Below are positions 6,044-32,340 of a DNA stretch of 64,000 bases, one piece after another; within the stretch, counting starts at the first letter, position 1; each line of letters starts with the position of its first letter. The notes beneath the pieces were generated by a model, which worked only from the letters and a program-made list of their open reading frames with translations, made no database searches and was not told the origin of the DNA. The translations under genes and the position numbers were made by a program. Source of the stretch: a virus; IMG/VR virus record IMGVR_UViG_3300042893_000474, positions 29,700 through 93,699 of that record, one strand, 5' to 3'.

Positions 6044-6104
6044 TATTTAAACTTTTTAAGTGCAAGTATATTTAACTTACAAAGTTAATTAATATTTAAA
6101 GTTA

Positions 6105-9098: not shown

Positions 9099-9101
9099 AC
9101 T

Positions 9102-10814
9102 ATGGCTATTTCAGCACAACATACTCAATTTGTAACTAGCCCTTATATAAACGCACTTCCTGCTGAAGACCTTATCAAGGTTGCTTTAAAAAAGCAGGAG
9201 ATGTATGATGAAGGTAAAAAACAAATTAAACAGAATCTAGATAACTATGGTAAGTTACGTAGTAATATCATTAATGAAAATGAACGTAACTACTTTGACC
9301 AAGAGTTAAATAAAATGGTAAAGAACGTTCAGCAAAATGCTGGATTGGATTTTTCTAACATGTCAAATGTAGAAGCTGTAATTAACTTAGGTAAGCCTTT
9401 TGAAAACGACAACTACATTAAGACTGCTCTTGATAATGGAACAGAATATCAGCGTCGTCAAAAAGAATTAGCATCTGTACCTAAAGATAAAAGGAATGCA
9501 GACAATGATTTAATTTATATGTACGATATCCAAAAACACATTGAAGGGGGAGGACTTGGACAAAAGTTACAAAAAAATACAAGTTACACTCAGTATGTTG
9601 ATATCAAAAAGAAATTAGCGGATATCGAAAAAGACGTACAAGGTGAGATGTCTACTATATATCGTCAAGGTCCTGCAGGGTACATTGAGAAAGTAGACAT
9701 AGAAAGAAAAACTAGAGAGCAGATTGCTGCTCGTATTTCTCAAAGTCTTACACCAGATGAACAGGCGCAGATTCAAGTGCATGCACAAGCTCAAATGTAT
9801 CGTATGGGTAGTGATGTTGTTTACCAAACTTGGGTAGGAGCAAACAAAGAAGAAGCGTTAATGGCTGAACAAGAATCCAAAAAAGCAATGTATGCTTTAG
9901 GAGATTTGCGAAAGGTTAAGAATCCCACAGCTCAACAACTTTCAGATATTCGAAATGCTGAAAGAGTTATTAAAGAAGCTCAAGACATTAAAGCTGCTAC
10001 TAAAGCTAACATTGATATGGATCCTGATCAGTTTGATATGGGAGAGTATCTTCCTTTCTTTACCAATAGATTTATTTCTGGTATTGCAGGAAACCAAGTT
10101 AAAGAGGTAATTAAGACTGACTTAAAAGAAGATAAAGTTTATTTAAAGAACATGGAGCATCGTCAAACAATGTCAGAGATTTATGCAAGAGGTGCTGAGG
10201 ACAGAAAAAATGCTCAGTTTGAAAATGAACTTGAGTACACAACACAAAGTGGAGCATCTACTAATCTTCTTAAAGGTATTAGTAAAGTAGTAACTAATGT
10301 TACTGGTACTACTGGTTCTGATAGAGTAAATAGTATGATTGCCCAAATTAATGCTAACACTAAATTAGGTGTTACTGTTAAAGAAAGAATGACAAGTCAG
10401 TTAGAAACTTTAAAAAGAACTTACCAATACGCTGAGGCTAATAAAGATAAAGGATATGTGGTTAGCATTAATCGTAGTTTAGGCAATGGTTATGTAACTA
10501 GTGTAGAAGATTTCTTGTCATCTGATCCTGTTCAACTTATTGAAAGTGGAGTTGCTAGTTCTATTGAAGTACGTGCTAAAACAGGAGGTACTGGTAAGTC
10601 AGGCAACAAGACCCCTGAACAGATAGAAGCTGAAGAAGGTGCAAAGACAAGAGGAGAATTAAATGCAAAAGCTAAATTCTTTGAAACCAATCCAGAGTTA
10701 GGTAAAATGCTTTTTGGTAAAACTGGTACTGCTGGTGGAGGAGGTGAAAAAACACCGACTGCAGAAGATTTAAAGAAGACAGCTGAAGCAATCAAAAAGA
10801 AAACTGACAGCTAA
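9102..10814 (+). CDS. crAss-like cargo/ejection protein (helical)
   Basis: 570 aa; N-terminal Y...P.E...KQ..YD pattern; coiled-coil composition; no Cys; lies before the giant genes. Confidence 0.55.
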   Translation: MAISAQHTQFVTSPYINALPAEDLIKVALKKQEMYDEGKKQIKQNLDNYGKLRSNIINENERNYFDQELNKMVKNVQQNAGLDFSNMSNVEAVINLGKPFENDNYIKTALDNGTEYQRRQKELASVPKDKRNADNDLIYMYDIQKHIEGGGLGQKLQKNTSYTQYVDIKKKLADIEKDVQGEMSTIYRQGPAGYIEKVDIERKTREQIAARISQSLTPDEQAQIQVHAQAQMYRMGSDVVYQTWVGANKEEALMAEQESKKAMYALGDLRKVKNPTAQQLSDIRNAERVIKEAQDIKAATKANIDMDPDQFDMGEYLPFFTNRFISGIAGNQVKEVIKTDLKEDKVYLKNMEHRQTMSEIYARGAEDRKNAQFENELEYTTQSGASTNLLKGISKVVTNVTGTTGSDRVNSMIAQINANTKLGVTVKERMTSQLETLKRTYQYAEANKDKGYVVSINRSLGNGYVTSVEDFLSSDPVQLIESGVASSIEVRAKTGGTGKSGNKTPEQIEAEEGAKTRGELNAKAKFFETNPELGKMLFGKTGTAGGGGEKTPTAEDLKKTAEAIKKKTDS

Positions 10815-13800
10815 TGATTTCTCCAGGAACTATACGAGCAGCATCCTTAGTTAGTAAGGGTGTTTCTCCCGAAGCGGCTTTAAGAACCGCTAATAATATT
10901 GATATCTATACTGAGAATAGAAGAAGTTTTTTGGCTTCTAATCCTACTACAAATCAAGTTACTCCTAATACAAGTATTAATGGTAGTAGCACTAGTGCAA
11001 TTCCAAGTACAGTAGTAAATACTCCAACACCTAGCCCAATGGCTAAAGGAGTATCTCTAGGTAACATAAACTCTTCTCTTAGTAACGTAGCAGTTAAAGC
11101 TAGTAAAGATTTTACAAAAGACGAATCAGATGCCATAAGTAAGTTAGCTGCTAGTGTAGAAAATCCTATTAAAAAGAAAGCAATTGTTTTTGGAGACCCT
11201 ACAGCTTTAATAGATGATCAAGCAACTTCTGAGGGGTTAGCTAAACTTAGTCCAAAACAATTAGGACAATTAGGAGCAAATCTTCAATCTACTTTACACC
11301 AAAACTATATTGATAATCTTCCTACTGCTTCAAGTAAACTTAATTTTGTTCCTGATCAATACAAGAATAAGAACTATGAGAAAGAATTAATCAAGAACTT
11401 AGATAAGTTATACATTGATTATAACAGTGGTTTGATGGATTCTCCTACAGTTGCAGGTTTGATGAAGGCAGAGCACACTAAAAGATTAAGTAGTTACCAA
11501 GGACTTGTTAAAGGATTTACAACTTCAAAAGATTTTAATGGGCTGTCAAAGAGCTATGAAGGTTTAATTAGTGAACTAGATCTTCAAGATAAAAATGCTA
11601 CTGATGAATTTGAGAATGCACAAAGACAATACAATCGAGGTAAGTCAGATATAAAACAAACTTCTTTAACTGTAGGGCAAGGTTCTCAAGATTACCAAAG
11701 AAACAAGAATAAATACAAAGCACTAAAAGAAGAACTATCTAGCGTATATAATAAAAGAGCTAATGCTATGTTAGCTAATGAAGTTTTAGACATAATTGAT
11801 ACTAGATATAAAGAAGCTTCAAAGGTTAATCCACAGTTATCTAAAGAAAAGTTTTTTGAGCAACAGCAAAAACAATATGGATTAGATAAGAGTGCATTTG
11901 GACTTGGTCAGATATTAGTAGAATCAGGAAGATTTGAAAGCTATCAAGACTATATTCGTTTCACTAATCCTACTAAATATTCCAAAAAGTCAACTACGGC
12001 AGGAAGAGAACAAGGCTTTACTTTAGAAGATCCTTTTGTAAAAAATAACACAGAAGCTTTAGACCTTAGTAGATCTTATGAAGGAATGTCTAACGTACAA
12101 GGGTACGACCAAACTAGAAATAGAGAAACAGGTAGCTATAAATATAACGATACTAAAGATGATCTTATTTTTACTGGTATCAAATTCGCTCAATCAATTT
12201 CAGAGGAATTAGATAATAGAACTATCAAGTCTATTAAAGAACGTGAGCAGTTAAAGTTACAGTACAATAAAAAAGAGATGCTTGGTACATCTACTAAAGA
12301 AGATAAACAACAATATGAAACTCGACTAGCAGAGTTAGATAGTCAAGTAGAGTATAGTGATTCTTTTAGCAAAACAATTCCAGAAGTATACAAGTACGAC
12401 AAAATAAAAAACAACGGTCTTATAAAAAGTTTTGCAGAGGATCGCAGACTGTTTTTAGATCAACAAAAGAATTGGAATGATCTAAAGAATGCCCCCGTAC
12501 AAACTGCTTGGTATCAAGATGTTGCTTTAAGTATGATGGTAGGCAATTTTGGTAAAACTCAAACAGGAGCTTACTGGAAAGAACTTGGAAATAGAGTGTG
12601 GGGAAAAGCATTAGGCATGGGTGCTGACATTGCAAAGTTTACTGACCAAACAATATTAAATGAAACCTTAGGAGTACCTAAGAGTGCTAGTTATAACGAT
12701 AGGAATCAATTCTACAATTACATGAGGCAACGTTTAGATGTTCCTGAAGTAATTGATGAGAGAGCAAGTTTAATGGCAGGAAAACCAATTACAAGTACAA
12801 CTATTTTTTGGACAGACCCAGCAGCAAGTTGGTACAATCCTACAGGTTGGAACTTTAGTTGGAAAGGTACTTTAATGACAGGTGCAGAAACTTTACCACA
12901 GTTGTATGCTTTTTCTGGAGCAGGTAGAATAGCTCAAAGTTTAGGGGGAGGTGTTTTAAAAGCAGGATTGGCTACTGGTGTTACTACTACACTACTAGGG
13001 CAAGCTAATGCTGCCAGGTTTGCGTTGACTTTACAAAAGACAGGTAGCACAGCCGCTGCTTGGGGGAACACATTTAGAAACAGTAACAATGTTTTCTTAA
13101 AAGAAGCATTGGCTGATCGTATTCCTTCTGCTTTAGGTATGGCTACAGTAATGTACCCAGAACAATACAACAGAACTTTAGAAAGATTAGAAATGCAAGG
13201 TGTGAAGAACGCACGTAGCATTGCTCATAACGTAGCTTTGCTAAGTACAGGTATTGAACTTATTGCTGAAAACTTTGTTCCTAACATCAGATATCTAGAT
13301 GACTTTGCTGAAAAAGGAACTGGCTTTAAAAGTCTTTTAGGAAAACTAGGAGCAAAAAGTTGGATAGGTGACTTTGACCAATACCGTGCATTATACTCTG
13401 GAGTACTTGGAGATAAGTTTTCGGAAAAATCAATTAATTATTTAGCTCGTAACTCTGCAGAACTTTTTGGTAAAGTAGGAGCAGCGGGTAGATTCTATGC
13501 ATCACGTGGTGCAGAGGAAGGTATAGAAGAAGTATTTTCAGAACTTGTTAATGGTGTAATTGACGCTAAGACTAGTTATGCTAATTACCGACAGGAAGCT
13601 CCCAATGAATTAAGTTTTGATAGTATTGTAAATGCTTTTGCTGGAGGATTCTTTGTTCCTTCTGCAGGTGCTAGTAATCAGATGAAAATATACACTGAGA
13701 ATAAAAAATATTCTGCAATGTATGACATGATGATTAACTCGGATTACTACAAGAACAAAATCAATACAGCATTCAAAGCAGGTGAGATTACTCAGGAACA

Positions 13801-16800
13801 GGCTACTAACATGTTAAGTAGGGTTCAAGATTTAGTTTCAGTTGCAGATGAGTTTGGTGTACAAAATTTAAAGAGACAGCCTGATGCTGCTAGATTTACT
13901 GCTGACTTAGTTAATGATGAGGATAAACAGTTTGATTACTTTAAACAAGTACTTAAAGCAAGAGGCATTGAAGAAAAGCTTGGTAAAGATAATGCTGTTA
14001 TAAAAGATGAGGAACGTACTGCATTACTTGCTGAATCTGAAGAAGCGACTAAAAGAATTGATAAGTATAAAAGACAAGTTTCAGTATTTGAGAGTATGTC
14101 TGATACTCAAAAGACTCAGATAGTTAATGATACTATTGCAGCTAAAGTTCAGACTGCTAAGTTTTCATCTAATAGTCAGATTTTATCTGAGTCTATTGAA
14201 AATGCAGATAATCAACTTGCACGTGCTATCCAACAGAAAGCACCAGAGACTCGTATAAGTGCTTTAAAAGAATACCGTAATGCTTTAATACAAGCTTCTG
14301 AGGATAGAGCATCTGCAAAACAAGTTGCTTTAGATAGAGGAACTTACAATCCAGTTATCCAAGCTGTTACTTCTACTGGAGAAGCATCTCCTTTAGATTT
14401 GTCAGAAATCAAAACAGGAGAAGACGCTATAGATGTAGTAGTGCAATCAATGTTAGATCCTGAAAATGGTATGGATATGTATTATCATATTACAGGTCAG
14501 ACACAACAAAGTTTAGAGCAAGTAAAACAAGATAAAGAAAACCTTGTTGACAATTTCTTAGATTACTTAGAGCAGACTGAAGCAGGCCCTACTGTCGATA
14601 ACACAAGAGAAAGTGCACCTACTACTGCTAACACCGCTACTGAAAGAGTTAAATATAAAACTATATCAGATTTGAATGATTCTCAAAAAGATATGTTTGA
14701 GGATTTAGCGGAAAGAATAGATGATGAACTGTTAGATCTACAAACAAAAGTAGAGAAGTATGATTCTGTTTTAACTCAAGTTTTACAGCACGGGGCTATT
14801 AATGCAAATATGTCACTAGAACAACAGGAGAAGTTTAGTGATTTTATATTTAAAAAGTTTGCAGCAGTTAAAAAAGTTGGCTTTAAAACTAATCAAGACA
14901 AAGGTTCAGAGTTATTTGACCTACAAGAGTTTGGTTTATACTTAGGAAGAAATCAAAAAGAAATTGAAAAAGAAATAAATGATATTGATGCGGCAATTAC
15001 GAAAGAAGAGAATGCTCAGAAAGTTGAACGAGAAGAAGTATCTTTAGATGGTTTAGAGAATGTAGATGCTACTGAAGAACTAAAAGTTCCAGAACTTACT
15101 CCAGAAGATATCACTGACTCTTTTACGAGTAACTTAAATCTACTAGAAAATATAGTAGAGCAGCAGCAAGTAGAAGTTGTAGATAACCAGATTACAGGAG
15201 AAGTAGATACTTTAGTTGATTTGCCTAGAGAACGTTCTAGGATCATTAGTGCTTTAATAACAGAGATAGCAATGAACCCTGATATCAAAGGAGCTCAAGC
15301 TATGATGGCTGCAGTAATGCAAGTCTTAGGTAAATCTAATCAAGAGATTGCAAAGACTTTGGCTCAAATGGGAGAGATAGCAGAAAACAAACCAGTCAAT
15401 GAATCTGATTATACGCACATGTTTAATCTGTACCAATTGGCTCGTATGACTGAGAATGTTCCTGCAAGTACAGAAGCAGTTGAAAATGCGGCTGAAGATT
15501 TAACTGAAGCAGAGCCTGTTGTTGTAGAACCGATTATAGAACCTGTAGTTGAAGTTATTCCAACACCTGTTATTACACCTCCTGCTACAGAGAATCAGAA
15601 AGATGAGTTAGCAGATAAGACACAAATATCTTCTACCACTCCTATGTTCAGACCCACTAGTAAAAAAGACTTGGTTAATCTTGTTCATTATGAGATACAA
15701 GAATCAATTATTTTTGGATTGAATAAAGAGATTAGAGACAAGAAGGATGTAAACACTGCTATAGTAGATTTATTTACTATGATAGATGAAGTTCTTGGAG
15801 AAGAAACTCTTGCAGGTTTAGAAAAAGTTTTTAATGAAGCTGCTAGTTTAGCTGTAGGAGAACAAAGGTTACAAGAGTTACGTGCAGAATTTATGTCTTT
15901 GTTTCCAAGTGGATTCTTAAGACAGACTGTACTGGATTATATGTTTGACCAAATTATTGTTAACAAAGTTGCTCAGTCGGATGTTACAGAAAAAGGAAAA
16001 GAAAAGTTAGATGCTAGTGATGAAGAATTAATTGCTCTTAATAAAAACAGAGAAGTATCAATTCAAATGGCAGATGGCCGCAAGTTTACTAAAGTTAAAG
16101 TAGTAAGTAAAGATGGAGTATTATTGTATGCAATAGAGAAAGGAAAAGAAGATGGCAAAACACTTTGGTTAAAAGTAGATAGAACTAAAGATAAAGTTAT
16201 TGGACTTAAGTATCCTATCTTAGGAACTCGACCTATTCAATTTAGTGATTTAAATGCTTTGTTGTTTACTGTACTTGATAATAACGGAAATATTCAGAAG
16301 TATGGAGAAGATGGTAATAGAAATGAATCAGGAGATAAATCTCTAGCATTTTATTTGCCCACCCCTAAGTATAAAGCAGAACCTACGGAAACGCAGAAAC
16401 AGTTCAATGGACTAAGACAAAAGATAGTCGCTGGAGACAGAGTAAAAGTAAATGCTCCTGTTAAAGGTATGTCTGTAAGTAAAGGAGTAGTTACTATTGG
16501 GCAACCTGATGGCTCTACTATAACTAAGAATACAGACTATGCACTTGAATTTAGTACGGAGAACTTATCTGTAAAAGAACAAACTCCAAGTGAGGCTACT
16601 CAATTTACTCAAGCCAAAGAAGCAAAAGTTATAAGTGAGAACATCTCACCAACACAGGCAACAACAATTGCTGCTGTTGAAAAAATGATTGCTGACTCTA
16701 AAAAGATTCCTGATCCAAGTAAAGAAGGTTACCTTATTAATGGGAAGCGTTATGAAAGACAATCTAATTTTGTTAAACGAGCATTAGGAGACAGTAATGT

Positions 16801-17749
16801 TGTTACAGAAGACTCTATCGTTAATATGGAGATGGGTGCAGCTGTAGGTAACTTACTTGATATTATAGGCCGTGACGTACTTGGTGGCAATAAAATAAAC
16901 TCTTTAGCTGATTACATTAAAGAAGCTGAACGTATGGGCAAATCTCTTAAAGGAGGTACTGGGTATAAGATTAACTTTACTCAAGAACAGTTTGACCAAC
17001 TATTAGCAGAACTTACAGAAGTTAAGGAGGAATTAAATTCACAAGGGTGGAAGTTGTTTACTGAAGGATTGATTGTACATCGTGAGTTTACTGAAAAAGA
17101 AAAACAAGAAACTGGCTATGAAGGTGTAGCTGGAGCAATGGATATCTTAGCAGTAGATCCTGAAGGTAAAGTACACATCATTGACTTTAAGAATAAGAAG
17201 TACAGAACTCAAAATAAGTTTACAAGTACTCTGTATAGTTCTAAACAAGGTTATCCTTCTAACGTAAGCAAGTGGTCTATTCAACAAACTACCTACGCTA
17301 TCTTAGGAGAAGACTTTGGATTACCTGTAGATTCAATTAGTATCTTAGCATTTGCATCCGAGTATGCAGAAGCTAATGGTACAGTTACTATTGGTGGATT
17401 AACTCTAGGTAGTAAGAAAGCAGAAGTACTTGACAAGCATAAGAGTCCTGTGTCAACTAGTCTGATTAAACTTGGATTTGATTCTAAGATTATCAAACAT
17501 ATTAAACTGCGTACTGAAAAGCCTTCTAGAGAAATAGCTGTTAAACCTACCGAGGCTACTACTATTGCTGCCGCAGACCAAACAAACTTAGATAAGCTAC
17601 AAGAGAATTTACCACAAATAGCTTCAGAAAATGCTGAAAACGTTTTTGATGTATTAAATTTGTTAGGTATAGAAATGGATACATTAGGAGTAATTCTTCC
17701 AACTGAAGGAAGTACTGACCCTGATGCCCTTAACCCACCCCCATGTTAG
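10814..17749 (+). CDS. giant ejection protein with hydrophobic helices and C-terminal PD-(D/E)xK nuclease domain
   Basis: 2311 aa; Gly/Ala hydrophobic helices and EEGIEE motif in the middle third; GVAGAMDILAVDPEGKVHIIDFKNK...Q...Y nuclease motif; the only Cys is the last residue. Confidence 0.7.
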   Translation: MISPGTIRAASLVSKGVSPEAALRTANNIDIYTENRRSFLASNPTTNQVTPNTSINGSSTSAIPSTVVNTPTPSPMAKGVSLGNINSSLSNVAVKASKDFTKDESDAISKLAASVENPIKKKAIVFGDPTALIDDQATSEGLAKLSPKQLGQLGANLQSTLHQNYIDNLPTASSKLNFVPDQYKNKNYEKELIKNLDKLYIDYNSGLMDSPTVAGLMKAEHTKRLSSYQGLVKGFTTSKDFNGLSKSYEGLISELDLQDKNATDEFENAQRQYNRGKSDIKQTSLTVGQGSQDYQRNKNKYKALKEELSSVYNKRANAMLANEVLDIIDTRYKEASKVNPQLSKEKFFEQQQKQYGLDKSAFGLGQILVESGRFESYQDYIRFTNPTKYSKKSTTAGREQGFTLEDPFVKNNTEALDLSRSYEGMSNVQGYDQTRNRETGSYKYNDTKDDLIFTGIKFAQSISEELDNRTIKSIKEREQLKLQYNKKEMLGTSTKEDKQQYETRLAELDSQVEYSDSFSKTIPEVYKYDKIKNNGLIKSFAEDRRLFLDQQKNWNDLKNAPVQTAWYQDVALSMMVGNFGKTQTGAYWKELGNRVWGKALGMGADIAKFTDQTILNETLGVPKSASYNDRNQFYNYMRQRLDVPEVIDERASLMAGKPITSTTIFWTDPAASWYNPTGWNFSWKGTLMTGAETLPQLYAFSGAGRIAQSLGGGVLKAGLATGVTTTLLGQANAARFALTLQKTGSTAAAWGNTFRNSNNVFLKEALADRIPSALGMATVMYPEQYNRTLERLEMQGVKNARSIAHNVALLSTGIELIAENFVPNIRYLDDFAEKGTGFKSLLGKLGAKSWIGDFDQYRALYSGVLGDKFSEKSINYLARNSAELFGKVGAAGRFYASRGAEEGIEEVFSELVNGVIDAKTSYANYRQEAPNELSFDSIVNAFAGGFFVPSAGASNQMKIYTENKKYSAMYDMMINSDYYKNKINTAFKAGEITQEQATNMLSRVQDLVSVADEFGVQNLKRQPDAARFTADLVNDEDKQFDYFKQVLKARGIEEKLGKDNAVIKDEERTALLAESEEATKRIDKYKRQVSVFESMSDTQKTQIVNDTIAAKVQTAKFSSNSQILSESIENADNQLARAIQQKAPETRISALKEYRNALIQASEDRASAKQVALDRGTYNPVIQAVTSTGEASPLDLSEIKTGEDAIDVVVQSMLDPENGMDMYYHITGQTQQSLEQVKQDKENLVDNFLDYLEQTEAGPTVDNTRESAPTTANTATERVKYKTISDLNDSQKDMFEDLAERIDDELLDLQTKVEKYDSVLTQVLQHGAINANMSLEQQEKFSDFIFKKFAAVKKVGFKTNQDKGSELFDLQEFGLYLGRNQKEIEKEINDIDAAITKEENAQKVEREEVSLDGLENVDATEELKVPELTPEDITDSFTSNLNLLENIVEQQQVEVVDNQITGEVDTLVDLPRERSRIISALITEIAMNPDIKGAQAMMAAVMQVLGKSNQEIAKTLAQMGEIAENKPVNESDYTHMFNLYQLARMTENVPASTEAVENAAEDLTEAEPVVVEPIIEPVVEVIPTPVITPPATENQKDELADKTQISSTTPMFRPTSKKDLVNLVHYEIQESIIFGLNKEIRDKKDVNTAIVDLFTMIDEVLGEETLAGLEKVFNEAASLAVGEQRLQELRAEFMSLFPSGFLRQTVLDYMFDQIIVNKVAQSDVTEKGKEKLDASDEELIALNKNREVSIQMADGRKFTKVKVVSKDGVLLYAIEKGKEDGKTLWLKVDRTKDKVIGLKYPILGTRPIQFSDLNALLFTVLDNNGNIQKYGEDGNRNESGDKSLAFYLPTPKYKAEPTETQKQFNGLRQKIVAGDRVKVNAPVKGMSVSKGVVTIGQPDGSTITKNTDYALEFSTENLSVKEQTPSEATQFTQAKEAKVISENISPTQATTIAAVEKMIADSKKIPDPSKEGYLINGKRYERQSNFVKRALGDSNVVTEDSIVNMEMGAAVGNLLDIIGRDVLGGNKINSLADYIKEAERMGKSLKGGTGYKINFTQEQFDQLLAELTEVKEELNSQGWKLFTEGLIVHREFTEKEKQETGYEGVAGAMDILAVDPEGKVHIIDFKNKKYRTQNKFTSTLYSSKQGYPSNVSKWSIQQTTYAILGEDFGLPVDSISILAFASEYAEANGTVTIGGLTLGSKKAEVLDKHKSPVSTSLIKLGFDSKIIKHIKLRTEKPSREIAVKPTEATTIAAADQTNLDKLQENLPQIASENAENVFDVLNLLGIEMDTLGVILPTEGSTDPDALNPPPC

Positions 17750-17755
17750 TAAAAG

Positions 17756-23700: not shown

Positions 23701-25816
23701 TATGAGTGACTTTAACACTACTAGTTATAGAACTTCGTTCCAGTCTGAAGAATTATTAACAGCTGGTAGCAAACTAAAGAATAACTTTAATGAAGAAGCT
23801 ATCGACTTTATGTTTAAAGAGTCTGCTTTAGCTCAGTTTAATGTAGGTAGTCTTGTTCAAGAAACTATGAGACAGATTTATCCTCTATCAGATTCTAAAG
23901 AAGTCCATTCAGATATTTATACCTTTATGGAGAGAAAAGGATTGTTCAAAGAAGAGGAAAAAATGCAAGCCATTCAAGGGTACAAGAACAATCTACTAGT
24001 TCCCTATGTTCTACTAAACGCCCAAACGCCAGAGAAAGGAAACTTACTAGAGTACTACAGAGGCAAGAAAGGAATATTTGTAAGAACAACTGCTAATAAT
24101 ATGGAAGAAAGATTCCAAAGATTATTACAGAATCCAGAAATGAGGAACAACTTTGTCATGACTAACATCTATATAGACATAGAGAACTCAGGCAGAGAGA
24201 TTGAGTTTAAACTAAAGAACACTGATGTAGACGAGAACAGTAAGAGTTATAGACTTGCTTTCTTAGAAGGTTTAAATAGTCCTAATCCAGAAGTTAAAAG
24301 TTTCTTTGAAGACTTAGGTATGGGTTCGTACTTACAGTATGCAGGTTCATATGCATCTGGCCATGTATCTACTATTGTGCCTCATGAAGTTTATGTAAGC
24401 CATACTACAAATGCTTTCAACAAACTAACCGAACTTAAAGATACTGATAGTGCTAAGTTTGATGCTTACTTAAGTTTAGTTAGATTCTCTACTAAAATGG
24501 CTCTTGAGACTGCGGGACCTATTAAAGGGTTAAGTACATTCTTTGTAAGTAACTATGCTGAGATGGCTAAGACTATTACTGGATTAAGCCCAGAAGTACT
24601 TAAGCTATATAAGAACAGAGAAAACCTCACCTCAGGTAAAGTAGAGTCTCTTCAGCAATCTCCATCTACTAGTGTTGAAGTAATTCCTCTAAATGAATCA
24701 CAAAGATTTACTAGAGAATCAGCTGAAAAAGATACAGAGTATATGTATTTATTTACAGATAATGCTGGTAGAACATCAGGCTCAGGAGTTATTGATCCTA
24801 ACAGTTGGTATGCTAAAAAATATGGTGCAGATAAAAAATATGCAAGTAAAACACAAGCTGTAGCAAGAGGTCTTAAAAATGTTTATCCTATTACTACAAT
24901 GGTAGATGATAAGAGAACTCAATGGACAGATGACCAGTTTAATGAATACAAGAAAATTATTGATGATGAAATAGAAACTATTAAACAGGCATCTAAGAAG
25001 TATAATGGTATTAAGTTTGGTGCAGAAATGCCTTTTGGTAAAGGTGCTATTTCTAATATGAAAGACAGTGCTCCTAAAATATGGAATTATCTTAATACAA
25101 AACTTGCTGAAATAGGTATTGATAATACAGGAGATATACCTGTATCTACTCAACCATCTACTAGTGTTAATCTTTTAGTAGAAGCAGGAGTTAAGCCTAC
25201 TGATATGGCAGGTAATGCTGCTAAAGATATACAGATGGCTTCTGAGTCTACTCAGTTTATTGGATTCCAATCAGGAACTGCAACTGTGAGTTCTACCAAC
25301 AAATACAAAGAAGCTTGGGGAGATAAAGCAAACACAGGAAATTATACTGCGGACGATGTAGTAATGGTTTCAGGTAGTGGTTTATTTAGGGGAGTTACTG
25401 AAGCTCAGATAAAAGAAACTTTAACTAATAAATACAAACCTTTGTTAGAACAGGCTATTGCAGCTGGTGCTTCTTTTAGAGTGGGTAATCAATATGCTAA
25501 AGGAAATCTTTCTGATCAGTTAATTGCTCAGTATCTAAAAACTAAAGGATACCAAGAGGAGAAATTTAATGGGTATTCTAAATGGACTCCTAAAGTTACT
25601 GAAACAAGTCAAGAGATTCAAAAAGAAGTTATAGAAAACTTTGAAGAAGATTCTGATGTTACGGATACCAATGTGCCAAATACTCCGACACAGTTTCCTC
25701 CAACCAAAACAGATGATATTCAACTTACCTTAAAGTTAGACCCTGATCAGAAAGATGATGATAAAGGGAACTTAGATGACTTAGGGTTTGAAGAAGATAC
25801 CTGTGAGATAGTTTAA
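17756..25816 (+). CDS. virion-packaged single-chain double-psi-barrel RNA polymerase (crAss-like)
   Basis: 2686 aa; RIPVQ...LP...GGDYDIDKL catalytic DxDxD (22328-22342); EADAQG, PPLK...HKFS, VDIAKE motifs; middle gene of the giant triplet as in crAss-like phages. Confidence 0.9.
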   Translation: MNACSIKGTSYEKEYRQILSEPAMIFVWNANNEQPLDKKKVGNEVIENPLYTALLNHPVTKGERQNALKLVAQSFLPAFTREYTPNEEGDYSLEQVVSYVEKRQKQAQDQREQLKSSINLPTSMAINIPDGVINETARQIFFSEEQGQDIYDTLQYLLGVKKSWDGVYSELVNQRNTILGRVKAGQHFSEDPERLAYNEILVQNFDKIKSWYDSKEGLVGEAELESQFGDSEDWKSKDKSQAQRASSIILGLVTSLPAYRTAIPGEIDFETGEEYQQVTQVQVQSTVTGLPKSGDFQKNWSLLGSTLSGMTNYSDMYEAIEGLSSRYPQFAYLLSKIPNAKIPGSFKDVRQFLLASEFKRVFSVPEVSSVVVDVTLKENGKIATTQQLKGFQPVRNAVALYDSQYFSYNQKYLVKGLEGNEVNLEGIIEDFQGLFNDLGSALTKKVPMQNFLFPARLDKFVQFLQSVGLGLNNQEYLKSTNINGTKEFIQANLDKLKTIYEKLKIVSIANEYLTDDAKIKVDRPLSFLRDTIQEIYVSKGKVRPDVEAALEQAFADNKLRYKGGVKQAIGYLGIKKTEISPFINFFTQYDAEFRPSSYMNAADKKKFVRGPWFYLTQQTNVINSVSSYDELINIPGFERFDYRKNPDILGSLWLQRMFGLPRTKNAIEANPLGTYVRKKDTLGNPIELNIANFDGMEIKNFGAKSGKTTTDQHPNDKIFQDFASFFQSLEMENIRFGDKTAAFTVRASNPILSEKIYVALNAAELITPTERLESEKSLTELFNGYLASEATRIIKLIEEKGRGTTYDRLGKNLFIFNDILPEDTLNKFKDAKTREEVIAAYTEATSMMSTVLQEYFSQESQKLVDKLVDTFSTSVNITTGQEVTQAQRLKQTVEKLNKLNLISTQLLPSEVRDNPPKITVENLPYLAEIYLKNGFVHNVEFLKMFVGDLSNFDKTNLDAREIFKRIPFTSSPGNVFFWDEAAQEFFDNDTNQDALSIAYTGVANKFSPILKTVVYNDVNTFSSESYQEYKEAYDSDDSWDALTEDEKSEFSEYANKPKEADAQGVITLDSYRNYLLGINRWSSEQEQAYNRQVRLVKINQELNNNPTNAEELYKEKNEIVENFGSALFPPLKLGHYGAIVEDPKLIALHKFSLIPLIPSAIEGKALEKQLELMYRNKINYYTFKSGSKMAQYGESIDFYKEVTNEQGEKVLVVNDALGENNVTSIHLQNLREQQYQAPKFKTQATLATQMMKLVFGDFFENGEISSDFSEGTQRQIESLYDSFKNNINDLITFETIKLERKLGIRRNAAKEIIEVDQLQMARFFAEELENKEAPEALRRFIQVNEDGTFKYPLDAINNRNQLESLVLNVINNKVISQKINGESYIQVAGTGFETKRYVKPTAEQLKEFGANDLQFYTRDPITGETLPMEVKVGFNVKKHGGLLKLEYGKGKVETLKQLNKILGSKAPLDIAWKKKHMDKLTMVGVRIPVQGFSQMEYATIKEFLPESAGAIMVLPAQIVVKSGGDYDIDKLTFFETSYDNKGEVYKKSFNLKDYEAKLEKQKELKKTRQELITLSELLEKEIADNDIFRERESLKKEINEIKKEILNAKAAVEDFLDSGFLTKEDASWAREAASDKEDLQRAFADLDSFDTANDVRVLQTVSLIKSKLREISKEVESIDAYKKSLSNNLVGILKGVLMQGELYNALITPNTNSVLTQYTPPGEKISTTAVFSPLTSWRIYMENILSKDALGIDAKINTLQKEFQRAGLKITGSLLKKYYFESNKDKQGNIILGGKKDARGENRISKVLSEFINGHVDIAKEDWIILLGLDQETSPLAHAMILTGTPVEQVLGLINSPIIKTVLQLGNRPEIQKKLDNIRPNKKKAILGLIKNKLTKVTDPEVKALIDAAQLAISGLKVKSTNGITDTFVNNLLVNPIFNKHISNFKPTESLSEEESAIRDLAYLMQFYVVVRQQESLRELTSMSDFNTTSYRTSFQSEELLTAGSKLKNNFNEEAIDFMFKESALAQFNVGSLVQETMRQIYPLSDSKEVHSDIYTFMERKGLFKEEEKMQAIQGYKNNLLVPYVLLNAQTPEKGNLLEYYRGKKGIFVRTTANNMEERFQRLLQNPEMRNNFVMTNIYIDIENSGREIEFKLKNTDVDENSKSYRLAFLEGLNSPNPEVKSFFEDLGMGSYLQYAGSYASGHVSTIVPHEVYVSHTTNAFNKLTELKDTDSAKFDAYLSLVRFSTKMALETAGPIKGLSTFFVSNYAEMAKTITGLSPEVLKLYKNRENLTSGKVESLQQSPSTSVEVIPLNESQRFTRESAEKDTEYMYLFTDNAGRTSGSGVIDPNSWYAKKYGADKKYASKTQAVARGLKNVYPITTMVDDKRTQWTDDQFNEYKKIIDDEIETIKQASKKYNGIKFGAEMPFGKGAISNMKDSAPKIWNYLNTKLAEIGIDNTGDIPVSTQPSTSVNLLVEAGVKPTDMAGNAAKDIQMASESTQFIGFQSGTATVSSTNKYKEAWGDKANTGNYTADDVVMVSGSGLFRGVTEAQIKETLTNKYKPLLEQAIAAGASFRVGNQYAKGNLSDQLIAQYLKTKGYQEEKFNGYSKWTPKVTETSQEIQKEVIENFEEDSDVTDTNVPNTPTQFPPTKTDDIQLTLKLDPDQKDDDKGNLDDLGFEEDTCEIV
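24662..25168 (+). repeat. 15-bp direct repeat CCATCTACTAGTGTT (PSTSV) flanking an in-frame 164-codon domain
   Basis: Exact copies at 24662-24676 and 25154-25168, 492 bp apart. Confidence 0.85.
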
Positions 25817-25827
25817 CTTACAAAGTG

Positions 25828-25857
25828 AAGGGGTGCAAGTCTTTACTTGCATTCCTT
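25828..25857 (+). terminator. stem-loop after RNAP gene (terminator or processing site)
   Basis: AAGGGGTGCAAGT-CTTT-ACTTGCATTCCTT, 13-bp stem with two G-U pairs, followed by GTTATTT. Confidence 0.6.
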
Positions 25858-25876
25858 GTTATTTCGATTAAATTTG
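25847..25876 (+). promoter_or_regulatory. Bacteroidota sigma-70-type promoter
   Basis: TTG (25847-25849)-N19-TAAATTTG (25869-25876) upstream of 25903. Confidence 0.75.
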
Positions 25877-25902
25877 TATAACTAATAATACAACATTCTA
25901 CA

Positions 25903-28900
25903 ATGTCTTGTTTTGCAAAAATAAAATCTCCACTCAACGGTAAAACTATAACTAGTCCTGCCTACTACCAATTAACATCATTTTTTCCACCTGCTGAAGG
26001 GAGAAGAATATATGAGGCTACTACCACTATTAGTTTTAAAACCGAAATTGGTTTTGATTGGACTAAACGTCAACAAGGATACAGCCCTAAGCTAAACTTT
26101 GCTGGGGAGCCTACTTTAGATCAAATCAATACACACCTTAGACTAAACTTAAATCCACGGGAGATTAGAGCAGGAGAACAAATGGATGAAGTAGCAAGTC
26201 TAGGTTACCTAAACAAAGGTTATGCTAATCCAAATGCTTTTAACCTAATCACCAACGAGATTAACTTAAACCCCAAATATAGTTTAATAGAGAGCGAGGT
26301 ACTAGCAAGAGACGGCAAGTACTATCTATCAGTTAAACCAGTACCAAATGGCAAGTCTGTAAAACCTGTAAGTAAAGATTACTTAAGAACAGTAAAGTTT
26401 CCTGATATGATTGTTAACAGTGTTGAGGATTTTTCCAATGCAGGGTTAATAGAGTTGATGGATAACTTACTTAAGAACAAAGAGTTACCTCCTTTCCAAC
26501 ACAAGATGTTAGAAAGATTGCGTAATTTAATGAAGATAAACCCAACACTTAAACTTGCAGTATTTGATGATGCTGAAGTAGACCAAGAGTTTCAAAGGTC
26601 ATTTTACGACCCCAAGAGTAACACCATATACATTGGTAAGACAATAACATCAGATTTTAATAAAGAATCATTTGCTCGTGAGTTAATTCACGAAGCAGTG
26701 CATGCTTATACTATCTCAGCTTTAACTAATCCAGTAACTGCCGAAGAGAATAGATTCAGACAGGAGATGGAAAGATACATCTCTGAGTATAAATCTAAGT
26801 TTCCTAGACTACAACAGCAGTATGGTTTTAAAAATGTAGAAGAATTTGTTTCGGAGTATCTCTCTAATCCCTACTTTAGAAATGATTTACAGGAAGCAGA
26901 GAGAACAAGTAAAGATAAAACATTTATAGGCCGTGTTACAGGCAACATAAAGAGATTCTTAAAGAACGTATTAGGTTTAGGAGATACTTTGTTTGACAGA
27001 GTTAACCAAACGATAGATGATTACTTTGACTATCTGGAGAATCTAGAAGACATGCCTGACCTTGCAGGTGAGCATGAACTAAGATTTAACCAACCTTATG
27101 CAGCACAGCCTGTAAACCCACTTAGTGTTAACTTGAGTCAGTTCCAACAGTATGTTGATAGTACTTTTAATAGTTCTAGTTGGAAGCAACTAAGTCAAGG
27201 GTTATCTGAGATTGATCCACGTTTTGCTTCTATTGAAAGAATTAGGGAGAAATTTGGAAACATCTCAAGTGCGTCATTAGGCAGCACTATTAAATCTTCT
27301 ATTGACTATCTAGTAGCAATAGAGCAACTAGTAGATAGAGTTGCTAAGGATGTTGATTTGCACAGAGACAACTTAGGCTATTATAGTTCAGAAGATGCTG
27401 TATCGGTATTTAATCATGCAATACATATAGCTGAGTTTGTTCAAGAGCAGATGGCTGCTTACAATCAATATTTGATGCCTCAGTTGAGGATGGAACAAAC
27501 AAAAACTGACTTAGATATAAACCCTGTAGGAGCTGCAGAATTTAGACAAGAGCGTAGAAGTCAAGTAGAGAATTTTGATATTGTATCTCAGGAGTTAATT
27601 GCCAAACTTAAAGGTATCTCTAACAAATCAAACAGTTTAAAGAGTGAAGCTAAGTCTTCTATTTTAGCTCCAGTAGCATCCCAGTTAAGTGAGCCTTTTA
27701 TATTAATTGCTGCTCAGTTAAAAGAGCCCAACAGTCAATTGAACCAAGAGATTGATGCTAAAGAAAAGTTGTATCAACAAGCTTTGGCAAGCAATCAGAA
27801 TAAGAAAGCAGCTGATATGTTAAAGGACTTGAATCAACTTAGAATGTTTAGAGATTGGGTTCCTACCCAACAAAACATTATTAAGTTGCTTCAGACTGGT
27901 ATGAATCCTGAGTACACAGGTGCTAACTTTTTTACTATTTACTTGGGAGTGGCTAACATGACAGGTAGCCCTTTGGTTCAAGTAGTTAAAGAATACTTAG
28001 ACGTACACTTGACTGAAGCAGGTAACAAGAGTCTTGAGTACACCAATAGAGCAAGTAAATTATTTGATAAAATTGAAGCTAGGAATAAAAAGCAAGGTAT
28101 TCGTTGGACACAAAGTATAGACAACTTTTACAAGAACTTAACTCGTGAGGTTGATATGGTTTACTATGACGCCAATGGTGTGCGTAGAGTAGTAAAACAA
28201 CTTGCTTATAATACAAAGTTTAAAGAAGCTGAGTTCAGAAATGATTTACAGGAGTTAAAAAGAAATGTAGATTCGGCTAAAAAGGGAGGAGTAGAGGCAG
28301 AAATAGTAGAAGCTCAAGAAAAATTACAAAAGTTCCTAGATGATTACGCAGTACGCCCTTACACAGATGAATACTATGAAGCAGAAGATTTATTAATTTC
28401 AGAAGCTAGAGATGCTAGAGCAGATTTATTAGACCAACTAGAAGAGCACCAGGCTGTGTTTGGAGATGCAGAGGCTAGTCAAGAAGAAAGAAAGCATAGA
28501 ACAGAGTTAAGAAGAGCTTATGAAAGACTAGGTTCTATTTATAATGAAGATGGTACTGAGAAACCTAAAGGAACTAAAGAAAGAAACATTGCAGATTCTA
28601 TTATTGCTTATAAAAATAAACGTAAGGCACTAGAAGCTATTGAATTTGTAATCCCAGATAAAGTTAAAGTACGTTTTGATATTGAGAAGAACTCACGTAA
28701 ACAAAAAGTAGCTGACTTAGAACGTAAGATTAGTATCTTAAATACTGATATTGCAGATGAGATTGCTCTTGGGCAGGATCCTACTACTAAACAAAATGAG
28801 TTAGTAGATATAACAGCACAGCTAGAAATAGCTAAAAATGATTTAACTAAATGGCTCAATGCTAACACTCGTACTGAGATTGACCCTGAGTTTTTTGAAT

Positions 28901-31900
28901 TGCAAAGAAGCATTGCAGATAAAATCAAAAACATCTTTCTTAAATATGGAGAAGATCCTTTATTAAGTGAGGCGTATGATGAGTTGTTTAATTCAGTTAA
29001 AGGGTACAGAGACCAGGATGGTATTATAGTAGGTAGCCAAATCCAGAGAGGATTAGGACAAACTATTAAAGACTTAGAGACAAAGATTGAAAAACTTAAA
29101 GAGGACGCAGAAGAAAATAGACAGATATCTGACCAAGATAAAGAAACTCTAAAAGTTCTATTCAAACAGATCAGCGATATTCAAACTAAAGAAACTACTG
29201 AATACTACGTAGAGCAATACAACAGCGTTGCTCGTGCCGCTAGAGTAGACTTATATGCAGATGCTCAACAAGTAATAGAGATTAAAGAACTTTCGGAAAA
29301 ATTAGCAGACCAGTATATTGAGAATGAAGGTTTAGTTGACGAAGATTTAGAGTTAGACGATAACTTACCTGTTCTAAACCATCCTTCTGAATTTGGTACA
29401 GATAAACATAGGAATGATTTGATATCTTCTTATGAGAATATGATTACTGAGATGCGTTTGCAACAAAGAATCAAAGAAAGCGATTGGTATAAAGGAAATC
29501 ATATTTCTATTAAGAAGAGTTACACAGATAAAAAGACAGGAAAGAAAGTAATTAAGATTTACGAAAGACCTATTTATATCTGGAACCGTACTATTCCTCG
29601 TAATGCTGCTTATATAAAACAAGAGAACCCAAACTTTGATTGGGCAGTACCTAGAGTTAGAGATGAGTACAAAAACAAAGATTATAATTTCTTAGGTTCT
29701 GCTAGACCTAGACAAACTACAGACAATAAATATACTAACGAAGTTTATACTAAATCACTACAAGACGATAAAGACATTGCTGATGAGATGGTAGGTCTTT
29801 ATGAGGACATACAAAGAAACTTGCCTGTATCACAACGTCTTGAAGGTTATGTTGTACCTAACAAGACTAGAGAGGCTAAAGAAAATATAACTGATATGTT
29901 TACTAATCCTTTGGCTAGATTCAAAGGTTGGGTAGATGGTTGGAAACTTATCTTTAAACCAGGTTTAGCGGGAGAAGATCAGTATGAAGATGAGATATCT
30001 AGTTTAATTAATGAAGAAGACAAACAAAAGATATCAAAATCAAAAAGAAAAGTACAATTAATTAAAACCAGATATAAAGAACCTTTAAACACAAATCAAG
30101 TATCCCGTGTATTAGTTCAATCACTTGCTGAGTATGGTGCATATGCTGCTGAATTTGGAGGATTAAAGAAAGCAATGCCTGCAGTATTTGCTGCTAGAGA
30201 AGCTGCTTTAGAGACAAACATACCTGATGGAGATGTTCAGATGCTGGATAATGAGATTCAAAGATTCTTTTATGGAGGGGAAGTAAGCAATACTAGTTTG
30301 GGAAATAATCCATACATGAAGGCTACTATGCGTGCTATGAGAAGAATGTTCAGGTTTAGTCAGAGTCGAGTCTTGTTGTTTAATTTTCTGCGTGTATTTA
30401 AAAACATCTTTAACAACTTCCTTAAGATTGTTTTAAGTAAGAATAAGTATGGATTAACTAGAAAAGAATTACTCAGAGCATGGTGGAAAGGTTTAAATAT
30501 GAGGCGAAGTCTGGTATCACTAGAGATAGGTTCTAAACAACATAGTGACTATGCATTAAAACTAGTTCATTTTAGAGCGTTACCTGCAGCAGACCCAACT
30601 AAACTAGCATCAAACGTACACCAAACAAGTATTTTTAAATACGCCAACGCTGAGAATTTCAGTGGTCAGATATTTGGATATATGGAGATGGCTTCTACCA
30701 TACCTATTTATGAAGCATTAATTGCTCGTTTGGATGTACCTATTGTAATTAACGGTCAACAAACTAGAATTAACTTAAGCGATGCTTACGAAGTAATTGA
30801 TGGTATTCTTGTTCCAAAAGAAGGAGTATTTGGATTAGAGTTAAACGCAATGCGTTCTTTAGTAGAAGATAGAAAGCAAATAATATCAACGTATTTAGCC
30901 CAAGAAGGAGTCTCTACTATAGAAAAATTAAGCAGTGCGCAAAAGACAAAGTTAAAAGGACTATTAACTTCAATAGACGTAAAGATTAATAGTTTAGAAA
31001 AAGTAAACTCAGTAAAGCAAGAAAAGTTAAAATTAATAGAACAACAGTTAAGAGACCAGATACACGAATTATACACTAGTACACAGGGTAACTACTACGG
31101 AAGATCTCGTTCTGCTTATGAGAAGAATCTTTTTGCAAGTATGGTAATGTCTATGAGACGCTGGTTAGCTCCTAATCTTCAGACAAACTTTGGACAGCGT
31201 AGACTTTCTTTGTACACAGGTAATCTAGAAGGAGGATTTTATGCAGAGGGTGGAAAATCTTTACTTAGAAAAATGCGATACTTAGTCGCTGGAGAGAGAA
31301 TGGATTTAGGAAGTACTGAGTTTGAGAAAGAAAAGCATCAAAGAATATTTAGAGATACTTTAAACGTAGTAGGACTACATGCTATCTCATTAGGATTAAC
31401 TTCACTTTTATTTATGGGATTAGGAGGTGGAGGAGATGATGACCCTTCTAAGTTGTTATCACTTCTAGCTATTATTTCTTTAGGTACATATGATGAAGCA
31501 ATTAGTTTACATCCATTACTAGCTCCTGCAAACTGGACTTATAAAACATTCTTTAGACAGCCTTTGGCAAGACCAGGAGATGAAGAAGGAGGTGCTAGTA
31601 GTGCAGTGAGACATGGACTCTATGCTTTATTTGGACCTCAGATGAGAAGTTTTGACCAAATTTTTGAAGCAATTTTTGACTCAAGAAATATTACAGACCC
31701 ATTTGAACCTTACTACGAACAAAGAAGAGACATGGGAGGTAATAGTATTGTTAATACCCCTGCTCCTACTAGAGGATTACCTAGAGTACTTGCAATGGCT
31801 ATGAAGTATTATGGAGTAGAGTCAGGTTTAAAACCATTCTATGCGCCTAGAAAAAGAGTTATGGATATGTTAAAACTTAATCCTATGTTAGGAATGCAAG

Positions 31901-32340
31901 ATCCTTTGGGAGATTACGTACAAATTCAACAAAAGATATCTGATTTACAAAAAGATATCCTAAAGAGAGACCCTCAAGATAATGTCTACTTTATGGAAGG
32001 CGAGTGGGATAAAATGTCTAAACCTGATGTAGAAGAAATGAAATCTAAAGTTGCTGAGTGGGGAGTTCTTAAAGTAGAAAAGATGATGATGGAGTCGTCA
32101 AACCCAGTTATTGAAGCTGCTAAAATGGAAAAAGACATTAGTGCTTATGAAGGTTCTCAAGATGTAAAACAGATAGAATTTATGTTGCAAGACTTTTATG
32201 ATGTTAAATTACCTAAAGCTCCTAAGAATGAACAGACTGAATTTTATAAATCAGTAGAGAAAGCATTTCAAAAGAATAGACGTAGCACTATCCAGAAAAG
32301 TTTTGAGCAACTACAACAAAGCCAGATGTCTCCAGAATAA
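25903..32340 (+). CDS. giant ejection protein with zincin-like metallopeptidase domain and C-terminal membrane helices
   Basis: 2145 aa; FYDP..NTIYI...LIHEAVHAYT...EEFVSEYLSNPYF zincin motif; hydrophobic pair flanking GGGGDDD near the C-terminus; the only Cys is residue 3. Confidence 0.75.
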   Translation: MSCFAKIKSPLNGKTITSPAYYQLTSFFPPAEGRRIYEATTTISFKTEIGFDWTKRQQGYSPKLNFAGEPTLDQINTHLRLNLNPREIRAGEQMDEVASLGYLNKGYANPNAFNLITNEINLNPKYSLIESEVLARDGKYYLSVKPVPNGKSVKPVSKDYLRTVKFPDMIVNSVEDFSNAGLIELMDNLLKNKELPPFQHKMLERLRNLMKINPTLKLAVFDDAEVDQEFQRSFYDPKSNTIYIGKTITSDFNKESFARELIHEAVHAYTISALTNPVTAEENRFRQEMERYISEYKSKFPRLQQQYGFKNVEEFVSEYLSNPYFRNDLQEAERTSKDKTFIGRVTGNIKRFLKNVLGLGDTLFDRVNQTIDDYFDYLENLEDMPDLAGEHELRFNQPYAAQPVNPLSVNLSQFQQYVDSTFNSSSWKQLSQGLSEIDPRFASIERIREKFGNISSASLGSTIKSSIDYLVAIEQLVDRVAKDVDLHRDNLGYYSSEDAVSVFNHAIHIAEFVQEQMAAYNQYLMPQLRMEQTKTDLDINPVGAAEFRQERRSQVENFDIVSQELIAKLKGISNKSNSLKSEAKSSILAPVASQLSEPFILIAAQLKEPNSQLNQEIDAKEKLYQQALASNQNKKAADMLKDLNQLRMFRDWVPTQQNIIKLLQTGMNPEYTGANFFTIYLGVANMTGSPLVQVVKEYLDVHLTEAGNKSLEYTNRASKLFDKIEARNKKQGIRWTQSIDNFYKNLTREVDMVYYDANGVRRVVKQLAYNTKFKEAEFRNDLQELKRNVDSAKKGGVEAEIVEAQEKLQKFLDDYAVRPYTDEYYEAEDLLISEARDARADLLDQLEEHQAVFGDAEASQEERKHRTELRRAYERLGSIYNEDGTEKPKGTKERNIADSIIAYKNKRKALEAIEFVIPDKVKVRFDIEKNSRKQKVADLERKISILNTDIADEIALGQDPTTKQNELVDITAQLEIAKNDLTKWLNANTRTEIDPEFFELQRSIADKIKNIFLKYGEDPLLSEAYDELFNSVKGYRDQDGIIVGSQIQRGLGQTIKDLETKIEKLKEDAEENRQISDQDKETLKVLFKQISDIQTKETTEYYVEQYNSVARAARVDLYADAQQVIEIKELSEKLADQYIENEGLVDEDLELDDNLPVLNHPSEFGTDKHRNDLISSYENMITEMRLQQRIKESDWYKGNHISIKKSYTDKKTGKKVIKIYERPIYIWNRTIPRNAAYIKQENPNFDWAVPRVRDEYKNKDYNFLGSARPRQTTDNKYTNEVYTKSLQDDKDIADEMVGLYEDIQRNLPVSQRLEGYVVPNKTREAKENITDMFTNPLARFKGWVDGWKLIFKPGLAGEDQYEDEISSLINEEDKQKISKSKRKVQLIKTRYKEPLNTNQVSRVLVQSLAEYGAYAAEFGGLKKAMPAVFAAREAALETNIPDGDVQMLDNEIQRFFYGGEVSNTSLGNNPYMKATMRAMRRMFRFSQSRVLLFNFLRVFKNIFNNFLKIVLSKNKYGLTRKELLRAWWKGLNMRRSLVSLEIGSKQHSDYALKLVHFRALPAADPTKLASNVHQTSIFKYANAENFSGQIFGYMEMASTIPIYEALIARLDVPIVINGQQTRINLSDAYEVIDGILVPKEGVFGLELNAMRSLVEDRKQIISTYLAQEGVSTIEKLSSAQKTKLKGLLTSIDVKINSLEKVNSVKQEKLKLIEQQLRDQIHELYTSTQGNYYGRSRSAYEKNLFASMVMSMRRWLAPNLQTNFGQRRLSLYTGNLEGGFYAEGGKSLLRKMRYLVAGERMDLGSTEFEKEKHQRIFRDTLNVVGLHAISLGLTSLLFMGLGGGGDDDPSKLLSLLAIISLGTYDEAISLHPLLAPANWTYKTFFRQPLARPGDEEGGASSAVRHGLYALFGPQMRSFDQIFEAIFDSRNITDPFEPYYEQRRDMGGNSIVNTPAPTRGLPRVLAMAMKYYGVESGLKPFYAPRKRVMDMLKLNPMLGMQDPLGDYVQIQQKISDLQKDILKRDPQDNVYFMEGEWDKMSKPDVEEMKSKVAEWGVLKVEKMMMESSNPVIEAAKMEKDISAYEGSQDVKQIEFMLQDFYDVKLPKAPKNEQTEFYKSVEKAFQKNRRSTIQKSFEQLQQSQMSPE

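Follow-up and report, generated by a model that had tools for sequence, protein, structure and literature searches.

Facing terminal cysteines in the giant RNA polymerase cargo proteins of crassviruses suggest a head-to-tail disulfide clasp

No phages are more abundant in the human gut than Crassvirales, and how they store, count and deliver their RNA polymerase (RNAP) together with its two giant partner proteins is an open question, because this cargo is invisible in the only virion structure. We studied this question in a stretch of 64,000 nucleotides (nt), here called the window, which covers positions 29,700 to 93,699 of IMG/VR virus record IMGVR_UViG_3300042893_000474 and represents the right-hand two thirds of a single 93.7-kb contig. 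A sequence-only reading of the window had noticed that three giant proteins, P1, RNAP and P3, carry cysteine (Cys) only at the ends which face each other, and had proposed that two disulfides link them in gene order. We found that the facing cysteines follow the chain through gene splits, fusions and added linker proteins in the relatives of this phage, and from this sequence pattern we consider it probable that a head-to-tail disulfide clasp makes one covalent P1-SS-RNAP-SS-P3 unit in the crassvirus RNAP cargo block.

The three genes lie one after another on the + strand. P1 (2311 amino acids (aa), 256 kDa; 10814-17749) is the first chain member and takes the position of phi14:2 gp67 and crAss001 gp47, RNAP or P2 (2686 aa, 304 kDa; 17756-25816) is the middle member, and P3 (2145 aa, 246 kDa; 25903-32340) is the last one, at the position of phi14:2 gp65 and crAss001 gp49. 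Their translations hold four Cys in 7142 residues. These are C2311, the last residue of P1 (...DPDALNPPPC*, a TGT codon followed by TAG; 17744-17746), C4 at the head of RNAP (MNACSIKG...; 17765-17767), C2683 in the tail of RNAP (25802-25804) and C3 at the head of P3 (25909-25911), which belongs to the conserved head M-S-C-x-A-x-I-K-S-P-x-[TN]-G. P1 has a tail Cys and no head Cys, RNAP has one of each, and P3 has a head Cys and no tail Cys. All four positions claimed in the sequence-only reading were exact when the coordinates were checked on the sequence, and both outer ends, the N-terminus of P1 and the C-terminus of P3, were indeed bare. C2683 is part of an acidic tail module of RNAP (residues 2626-2686; 25631-25813) which ends with ...LGFEEDTCEIV. 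Both Cys-bearing tails had been called acidic, and the last 40 residues agree, with 20% Asp+Glu and 0% Lys+Arg in P1 and 32% Asp+Glu in RNAP.

Upstream of the chain, six consecutive + strand open reading frames (ORFs) of 80, 411, 549, 50, 997 and 570 aa (2729-10814), at the position of the crAss001 cargo genes gp45/gp46, have no Cys in 2657 aa, again as claimed. The head of the 570-aa ORF, MAISAQHTQF, is kept upstream of P1 in relatives, and the protein is free of Cys in all of them. The start codons of RNAP and P3 are secure, since an in-frame stop is located two codons 5' of the RNAP ATG and the heads MNACSIKGT (RNAP) and MSCFAKIKSP (P3) are kept as protein in relatives down to about 35-60% identity.

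From base composition alone a Cys share of about 2.6% would be expected, and the replication proteins of the window have 0.5-5% Cys. The phage is not Cys-poor overall: the 1864-aa tail protein just upstream of the cargo has 32 Cys (G000:C1:26448-32042 in the genome; window positions 1-2343 are its C-terminal part). Other tail-side structural ORFs upstream of the cargo (including L101:2230-5428) are also Cys-rich, with 8, 10 and 19 Cys in 181, 183 and 641 aa, in sharp contrast to the Cys-free cargo. The probability that four randomly placed Cys would fall one each within four residues of the four facing termini is about 2e-12, which argues against chance at the level of the window.

Two scans of IMG/VR gave 92 related loci, which formed 69 clusters at 90% core identity, and the RNAP-core identity of these relatives to the window ranged from 95% down to 27%. 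Among the 69 non-redundant loci, 118 of 126 scored junctions had both a tail Cys and a head Cys; the other eight were artefacts, caused by small Cys-rich ORFs which overlap or are inserted (L042, L065, L075). The head Cys was located at residues 3-6 and the tail Cys mostly at -1 to -9, counted from the C-terminus. No genuine first member in the 69 loci had a head Cys, none of 39 last members had a tail Cys, and every relative with a separate P1 had the tail Cys. Terminal positions accounted for 246 of the 317 Cys in 414,458 residues, leaving an internal Cys frequency of 0.017%, while 9% of control ORFs of ordinary Cys content had a head Cys and 15% had a tail Cys. So the terminal Cys co-occur pairwise, a point which the sequence-only reading had proposed to test by such a tabulation. 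Locus L075 appeared to have a first member with a head Cys and was discarded as such, as an upstream fragment ends with ...INC*; L047 was a similar case, with an upstream fragment ending ...NYC*. The Cys-containing ORFs inserted at chain junctions (L065:1510-2295, L042:11711-13050 and L075:10024-10641) encode 205-261 aa and may be mobile or homing-type genes.

Counts of this kind could be misleading, because the gene order is the same in most of the relatives sampled and close genomes inflate the numbers, and the pattern might then be a product of chance, of shared ancestry or of some nucleotide signal at gene junctions. Changes of architecture speak against this. P1 and RNAP are fused in eight lineages, and no Cys is present at the start or at the joint of the fusions; the fusions of L039 and L083 kept the C-terminal Cys alone. 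In 12 lineages the chain has an extra protein of 170-1326 aa, and each of them carries Cys at both ends, the smallest ones having exactly two Cys, both terminal. In an RNAP-core tree, a quick tree with some long branches, the fused or split state changed at least six times and linker presence at least nine times, and the rule was kept each time; with these at least 15 independent changes, shared ancestry cannot explain the rule. This strongly supports what the sequence-only reading had supposed, a pairing of the terminal Cys across neighbours in gene order: they form facing pairs, each extra protein brings a new pair, fusions have none, and the outer ends stay bare. A nucleotide signal is also a poor explanation, since junction spacers range from overlaps to more than 600 nt and the rule holds for genes on opposite strands: crAss001 gp47 is encoded on the strand opposite gp50 and gp49, and cr85_1 shows the same pattern, which means that the rule acts at the protein level. 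We regard chance, ancestry and nucleotide signal as effectively refuted.

The small linkers between RNAP and P3 show how closely the rule follows the chain. Four of them, of 170-209 aa (L006:18024-18620, L015:14706-15317, L018:14076-14588 and L084:16255-16884), have exactly two Cys, at 3-5 and at -1 to -4. This linker is a fourth, unannotated chain member, which is not a separate gene in the window. In the sister lineage L006, and in L015 and L016, the relatives that come next, this linker is a protein of its own with about 200 aa (MAKSC...GFQEERCDF), whereas in the window the tail of the linker sits on RNAP itself: residues 2626-2684 of the window RNAP match the linker tails of L006 and L015 (blastp, E-values 1e-9 and 3e-6). 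Because these tails are homologous, whichever protein precedes P3 carries the same tail. The possibility that the window RNAP is a simple fusion of RNAP and linker was rejected, as the match was limited to the last 60 or so residues. We also dropped L091, which seemed to have separate P1 and RNAP without Cys at the joint and would thus have been a direct case of co-variation. Its RNAP frame is open for about 90 codons upstream of the first ATG and overlaps the end of P1 (L091:7890-8170), so it is most likely a frameshifted P1-RNAP fusion. A break in the RNAP of L005 (7014-7960) leaves pieces of 1332 and 630 aa.

Named crassviruses have the same arrangement. In phi14:2, gp67 has C1797 as its last residue, gp66 has C3 and C2179, gp65 has C3, and there is no other Cys in 5398 residues. 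In crAss001, gp47 has a single Cys at -3 (C2339), gp50 has C5 and a Cys at -9 (C2404) plus one internal Cys, and gp49 has a single Cys at position 5. The chain of Intestiviridae (p-crAssphage LMMB, cr11_1) has two members, the first with Cys at -2 and the second with Cys at 3, and the zincin-bearing protein of these phages has a tail Cys and no head Cys. In Suoliviridae (cr55_1, cr60_1, cr109_1) the Cys at -3 or -4 belongs to a giant fusion, and the protein after it has the head Cys at 3-5. Under translation table 11 the giant genes of the gut Suoliviridae cr60_1, cr109_1 and cr273_1 (L096, L098 and L104) contained 12-70 in-frame stops. Stop-codon recoding is known in crass phages, and these stops are consistent with it; in cr60_1 and cr109_1 the head and tail Cys were still found at the annotated termini.

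Position alone does not tell which terminus meets which, and the terminal Cys could in principle act separately: tails might dimerise with tails or heads with heads, or a Cys might serve as a cysteine switch for the P3 zincin, in redox sensing or in attachment to another part of the virion. The zincin site of P3 could indeed be capped by a thiol, pairing in three-member chains is not fixed by Cys counts, and in p-crAssphage the tail Cys of an upstream cargo protein stands alone. Still, such separate roles are very improbable in our view, because the outer termini are always without Cys, heads and tails are equal in number and adjacent, and two-member chains leave the adjacent pair alone, as no other partner exists. 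The cysteine switch in particular does not agree with P1 and RNAP, which carry terminal Cys without any HExxH motif, nor with the Intestiviridae protein, which has a zincin and lacks the head Cys; the linker proteins also break the zincin link. A zincin cysteine-switch zymogen was therefore rejected. The flanking residues are informative as well. The tail motif reads hydrophobic-x-F-x(3-4)-C and the head motif M-x(1-3)-C...P-x-[TS]-G; in the tail alignment Cys is the sole invariant column, and in the P3 head alignment, whose consensus facing the shared tail is MSC.A.IKSP.[TN]G, residues M1, C3, P10, G13 and S18 are invariant. That tail and head motifs are kept as a matched set speaks for pairing between neighbours. 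For three-member chains, the pairing of neighbours rests on parsimony, on these motifs and on the two-member chains.

A chemistry for such a pair has been published in another phage. In the cryo-electron microscopy structure of cyanopodophage A4 (Anabaena phage A-4L), gp27 Cys1715 forms a disulfide with gp26 Cys5 in the pre-ejectosome (PNAS 2025, PMC12002296). We counted the Cys of these proteins: gp27 (1717 aa) has its sole Cys at 1715 (-3) and gp26 (1114 aa) has its sole Cys at position 5 (MSKHC...). Like the window, A4 has large ejection proteins encoded by adjacent genes, and a Cys near the C-terminus of one protein faces a Cys at positions 3-6 of the next in both phages. Unlike the window, A4 has one link, no chain and no RNA polymerase, and its bond was published as a structural detail of one phage and not as a rule which follows gene splits and fusions. 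No homology was found between A4 gp26/gp27 and the window proteins (blastp E-value >0.01, hhalign probability <=0.2%, A4 chains absent from the Foldseek matches), so A4 is an analogue and not a relative. In crassviruses themselves, crAss001 virions contain several intersubunit disulfides (PMC10172136), and their tail proteins are disulfide-stabilised. By analogy with A4 we regard a disulfide as the likeliest chemistry.

The pairing logic and the flanking motifs would fit any paired-thiol chemistry, so the docked termini might instead bind one metal ion together (Zn, Cu or Fe; two tails and two heads may surround each ion) or pack non-covalently, without any disulfide. The Asp/Glu-rich tails could supply extra ligands, and a reducing cytoplasm or the anoxic gut would be no obstacle to a metal clasp. 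We judge this quite unlikely, because each terminus offers one Cys without a conserved His or a second Cys, and because A4, the sole solved case of this sequence pattern, is a disulfide.

In the proposed clasp, Cys would have been removed from the giant cargo proteins, as in other ejected phage proteins, except at the termini which meet the next protein. The short C-terminal tail motif of one protein would dock on the N-terminal head of the next, and the two facing thiols would then form an intermolecular disulfide in the virion. The product would be one covalent P1-SS-RNAP-SS-P3 unit of about 806 kDa. Because the clasps are located 0-9 residues from the C-terminus and 3-6 residues from the N-terminus, such a unit would have the topology of a single crass polyprotein. 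This topology would fix 1:1:1 packaging, the partly unfolded proteins could leave through the tail one after another, and thiol reductants of the host cytoplasm could then separate the clasped proteins. The single-file threading, the timing of the oxidation (after lysis) and the reductive release of RNAP, which the sequence-only reading had also put forward, are speculation.

Several published observations are compatible with this picture. Cargo proteins gp47, gp49 and gp50 of crAss001 need partial unfolding to exit, and about six copies of each were given by the authors as an example (PMC10172136). Some crass phages encode the three proteins of the RNAP block as one polyprotein, for which cleavage was proposed (bioRxiv 10.1101/2020.03.07.982082). 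The polyprotein is like the window in having the domain order in one covalent chain, and differs in having a peptide bond instead of a clasp, with Cys absent at the joints of the fusions. The presence in virions was shown by mass spectrometry for the cargo proteins of crAss001 (PMC10172136) and phi14:2 (bioRxiv 10.1101/2020.03.07.982082) only.

Disulfides could also merely rivet a static folded core inside the capsid, similar to the A4 ring, and in this case exit order and reductive release would be irrelevant and the proteins would come apart before or during ejection, either by dissociation or through cleavage, for instance by the P3 zincin. In A4 the C-terminal helix of gp27 is inserted into gp26 and the bond stabilises the folded gp27-gp26 ring above the portal (PMC12002296); P3 keeps an invariant HExxH, and the polyprotein forms are those proposed to be cleaved (bioRxiv 10.1101/2020.03.07.982082). 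However, the Cys are at the extreme termini in every lineage, which is needed by a threadable linear joint and not by a rivet at a folded interface, and crAss001 shows no ordered cargo density (PMC10172136). We therefore consider the static rivet unlikely, though less so than the metal site.

The contact between one tail and one head was also modelled. Co-folded with the 100-aa RNAP tail, the 500-aa P3 head scored 0.55, and the best of three controls scored 0.00; the runs shared >=40% of contacts, and the predicted local distance difference test (pLDDT) of the partner was >=39. In the calibration of this tool, 58 of 80 solved complexes and 2 of 110 mismatched pairs attained such marks, and those at <=0.60 were 7 of the 80 complexes and both mismatches. 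By the tool's own calibration the model gives weak support to the docking which had been predicted for tail and head.

Some points weigh against the disulfide clasp, the weakness of this model support among them. The Cys counts in three-member chains would also fit a bond between the P1 tail and the P3 head together with a bond between the RNAP head and its own tail. Phage cr273_1 follows the rule more loosely, with the nearest tail Cys at -50 and many internal Cys. In p-crAssphage LMMB (L095:6194-8779) an 861-aa upstream cargo-like protein has a lone Cys at -2 (...GGKQSCR), and the next protein has no head Cys; this unpaired tail Cys is unexplained by the chain model. Spontaneous oxidation is less obvious in the anoxic gut, the habitat of many crassviruses. 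A disulfide bond of this kind has been observed in no crassvirus so far, and the cargo is unresolved in the crAss001 map, which has no ordered cargo density (PMC10172136). Finally, recombinant phi14:2 gp66 is active alone in dithiothreitol (DTT) (bioRxiv 10.1101/2020.03.07.982082), so the link is unnecessary for catalysis. Taken with the A4 bond, the crAss001 disulfides and the weak co-fold, the head-to-tail disulfide of the sequence-only reading remains the likeliest chemistry, while the bond itself is beyond what sequence data can reach.

As to novelty, a full-text literature search gave no description of these cysteines or of the rule in Crassvirales. The crAss001 paper (PMC10172136) does not contain the word cysteine, the phi14:2 preprint (bioRxiv 10.1101/2020.03.07.982082) does not contain a word beginning with "Cys", and neither of them mentions a covalent link between the three cargo proteins. 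The claim that nothing of this kind had been described thus holds for Crassvirales in the literature searched, and needs correction for A4, whose bond is an already published example of the chemistry.

The block is identified by its genome and its domains. The contig encodes a crassvirus major capsid protein (Crass_capsid PF23898, E-value 1e-26), the tail ring protein 1 CrAss_Ring_1 and a P22-like portal, with the virion block on the + strand and the replication block (DNA polymerase, primase, helicase and exonuclease) on the - strand, which is the genome context of a crassvirus RNAP cargo block. The RNAP-core profile matched the phi14:2 gp66 RNAP (PDB 6VR4) with an E-value of 6e-39, identifying a virion-type enzyme, and the core aligned with crass RNAPs by tblastn. 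PHROGs and Pfam gave no useful family for the window RNAP. This giant protein thus has the two-barrel core together with the DxDxD motif, DYDID in residues 1525-1529 (22328-22342, + strand), inside the conserved GGD[FY]DIDK block. Its partner P3 has the zincin motif HEAVH (residues 263-267; 26689-26703, + strand), which is invariant in 16 relatives, with H263, E264 and H267 invariant in the alignment. The model of the P3 N-terminal part matched zincin protease folds weakly (Foldseek E-value about 1e-3, template modeling score (TM) 0.15-0.19). A zincin domain was reported for the phi14:2 gp65 orthologues (bioRxiv 10.1101/2020.03.07.982082). In homologous RNAP core, zincin motif in the third protein, genome context and terminal-Cys pattern, the window resembles phi14:2 gp67-gp66-gp65 and crAss001 gp47-gp50-gp49.

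N4-like phages (Schitoviridae; N4 gp50, DEV gp71-gp73) also combine giant virion RNAPs with partner ejection proteins, and Cys is strongly suppressed in all of these, which was explained by the authors by envelope passage (PMC11445570). The near-absence of Cys along the whole protein, as in N4 gp50, is found in the window proteins apart from the conserved terminal Cys. The N4-like proteins have essentially no Cys, termini included, whereas the window keeps a single conserved Cys at each facing terminus.

Other features of the giant proteins and their surroundings were also noted. No phage-encoded thiol oxidase was found by Pfam among ten structural-block proteins, several of which are Cys-rich. 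Residues 2317-2447 of the RNAP C-terminal extension (24704-25096) matched DUF7831 (PF25176) with an E-value of 5e-6; the score of 26.7 bits is just under the cutoff of 27. About 108 residues directly behind this region are missing from the relative L001, so the region is a variable add-on. P1 had no Pfam or PHROG family match. Its residues about 2105-2128 (window about 17120-17200) read ...GAMDILAVDPEGKVHIIDFKNKK, which by eye resembles the PD-(D/E)xK nuclease motif; no Pfam or PHROGs match to such a nuclease was found in the P1 C-terminal region.

In a wider and more doubtful form, disulfides could join the crassvirus cargo into a pseudo-polyprotein of about 0.7-0.8 MDa with RNAP as its middle link, and this pseudo-polyprotein would be threaded in one piece and unclasped by the reducing cytoplasm, so that cell entry itself frees the polymerase. 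In this form the tail and head Cys pattern would have arisen independently in unrelated podophages such as A4 and would be a general design rule. We put this forward tentatively, as possible and less probable than the clasp itself.

The pattern is of use for annotation in any case. It marks the true starts and ends of giant genes, reveals inserted genes as well as assemblies with frameshifts (L091, L005), and shows that small linker proteins belong to the chain. For the biology of crassviruses, a conserved covalent head-to-tail tether, if true, would explain why the three proteins have equal copy numbers, why split, fused and linker-containing architectures interchange freely, and why the removal of Cys elsewhere in the cargo proteins is so extreme.

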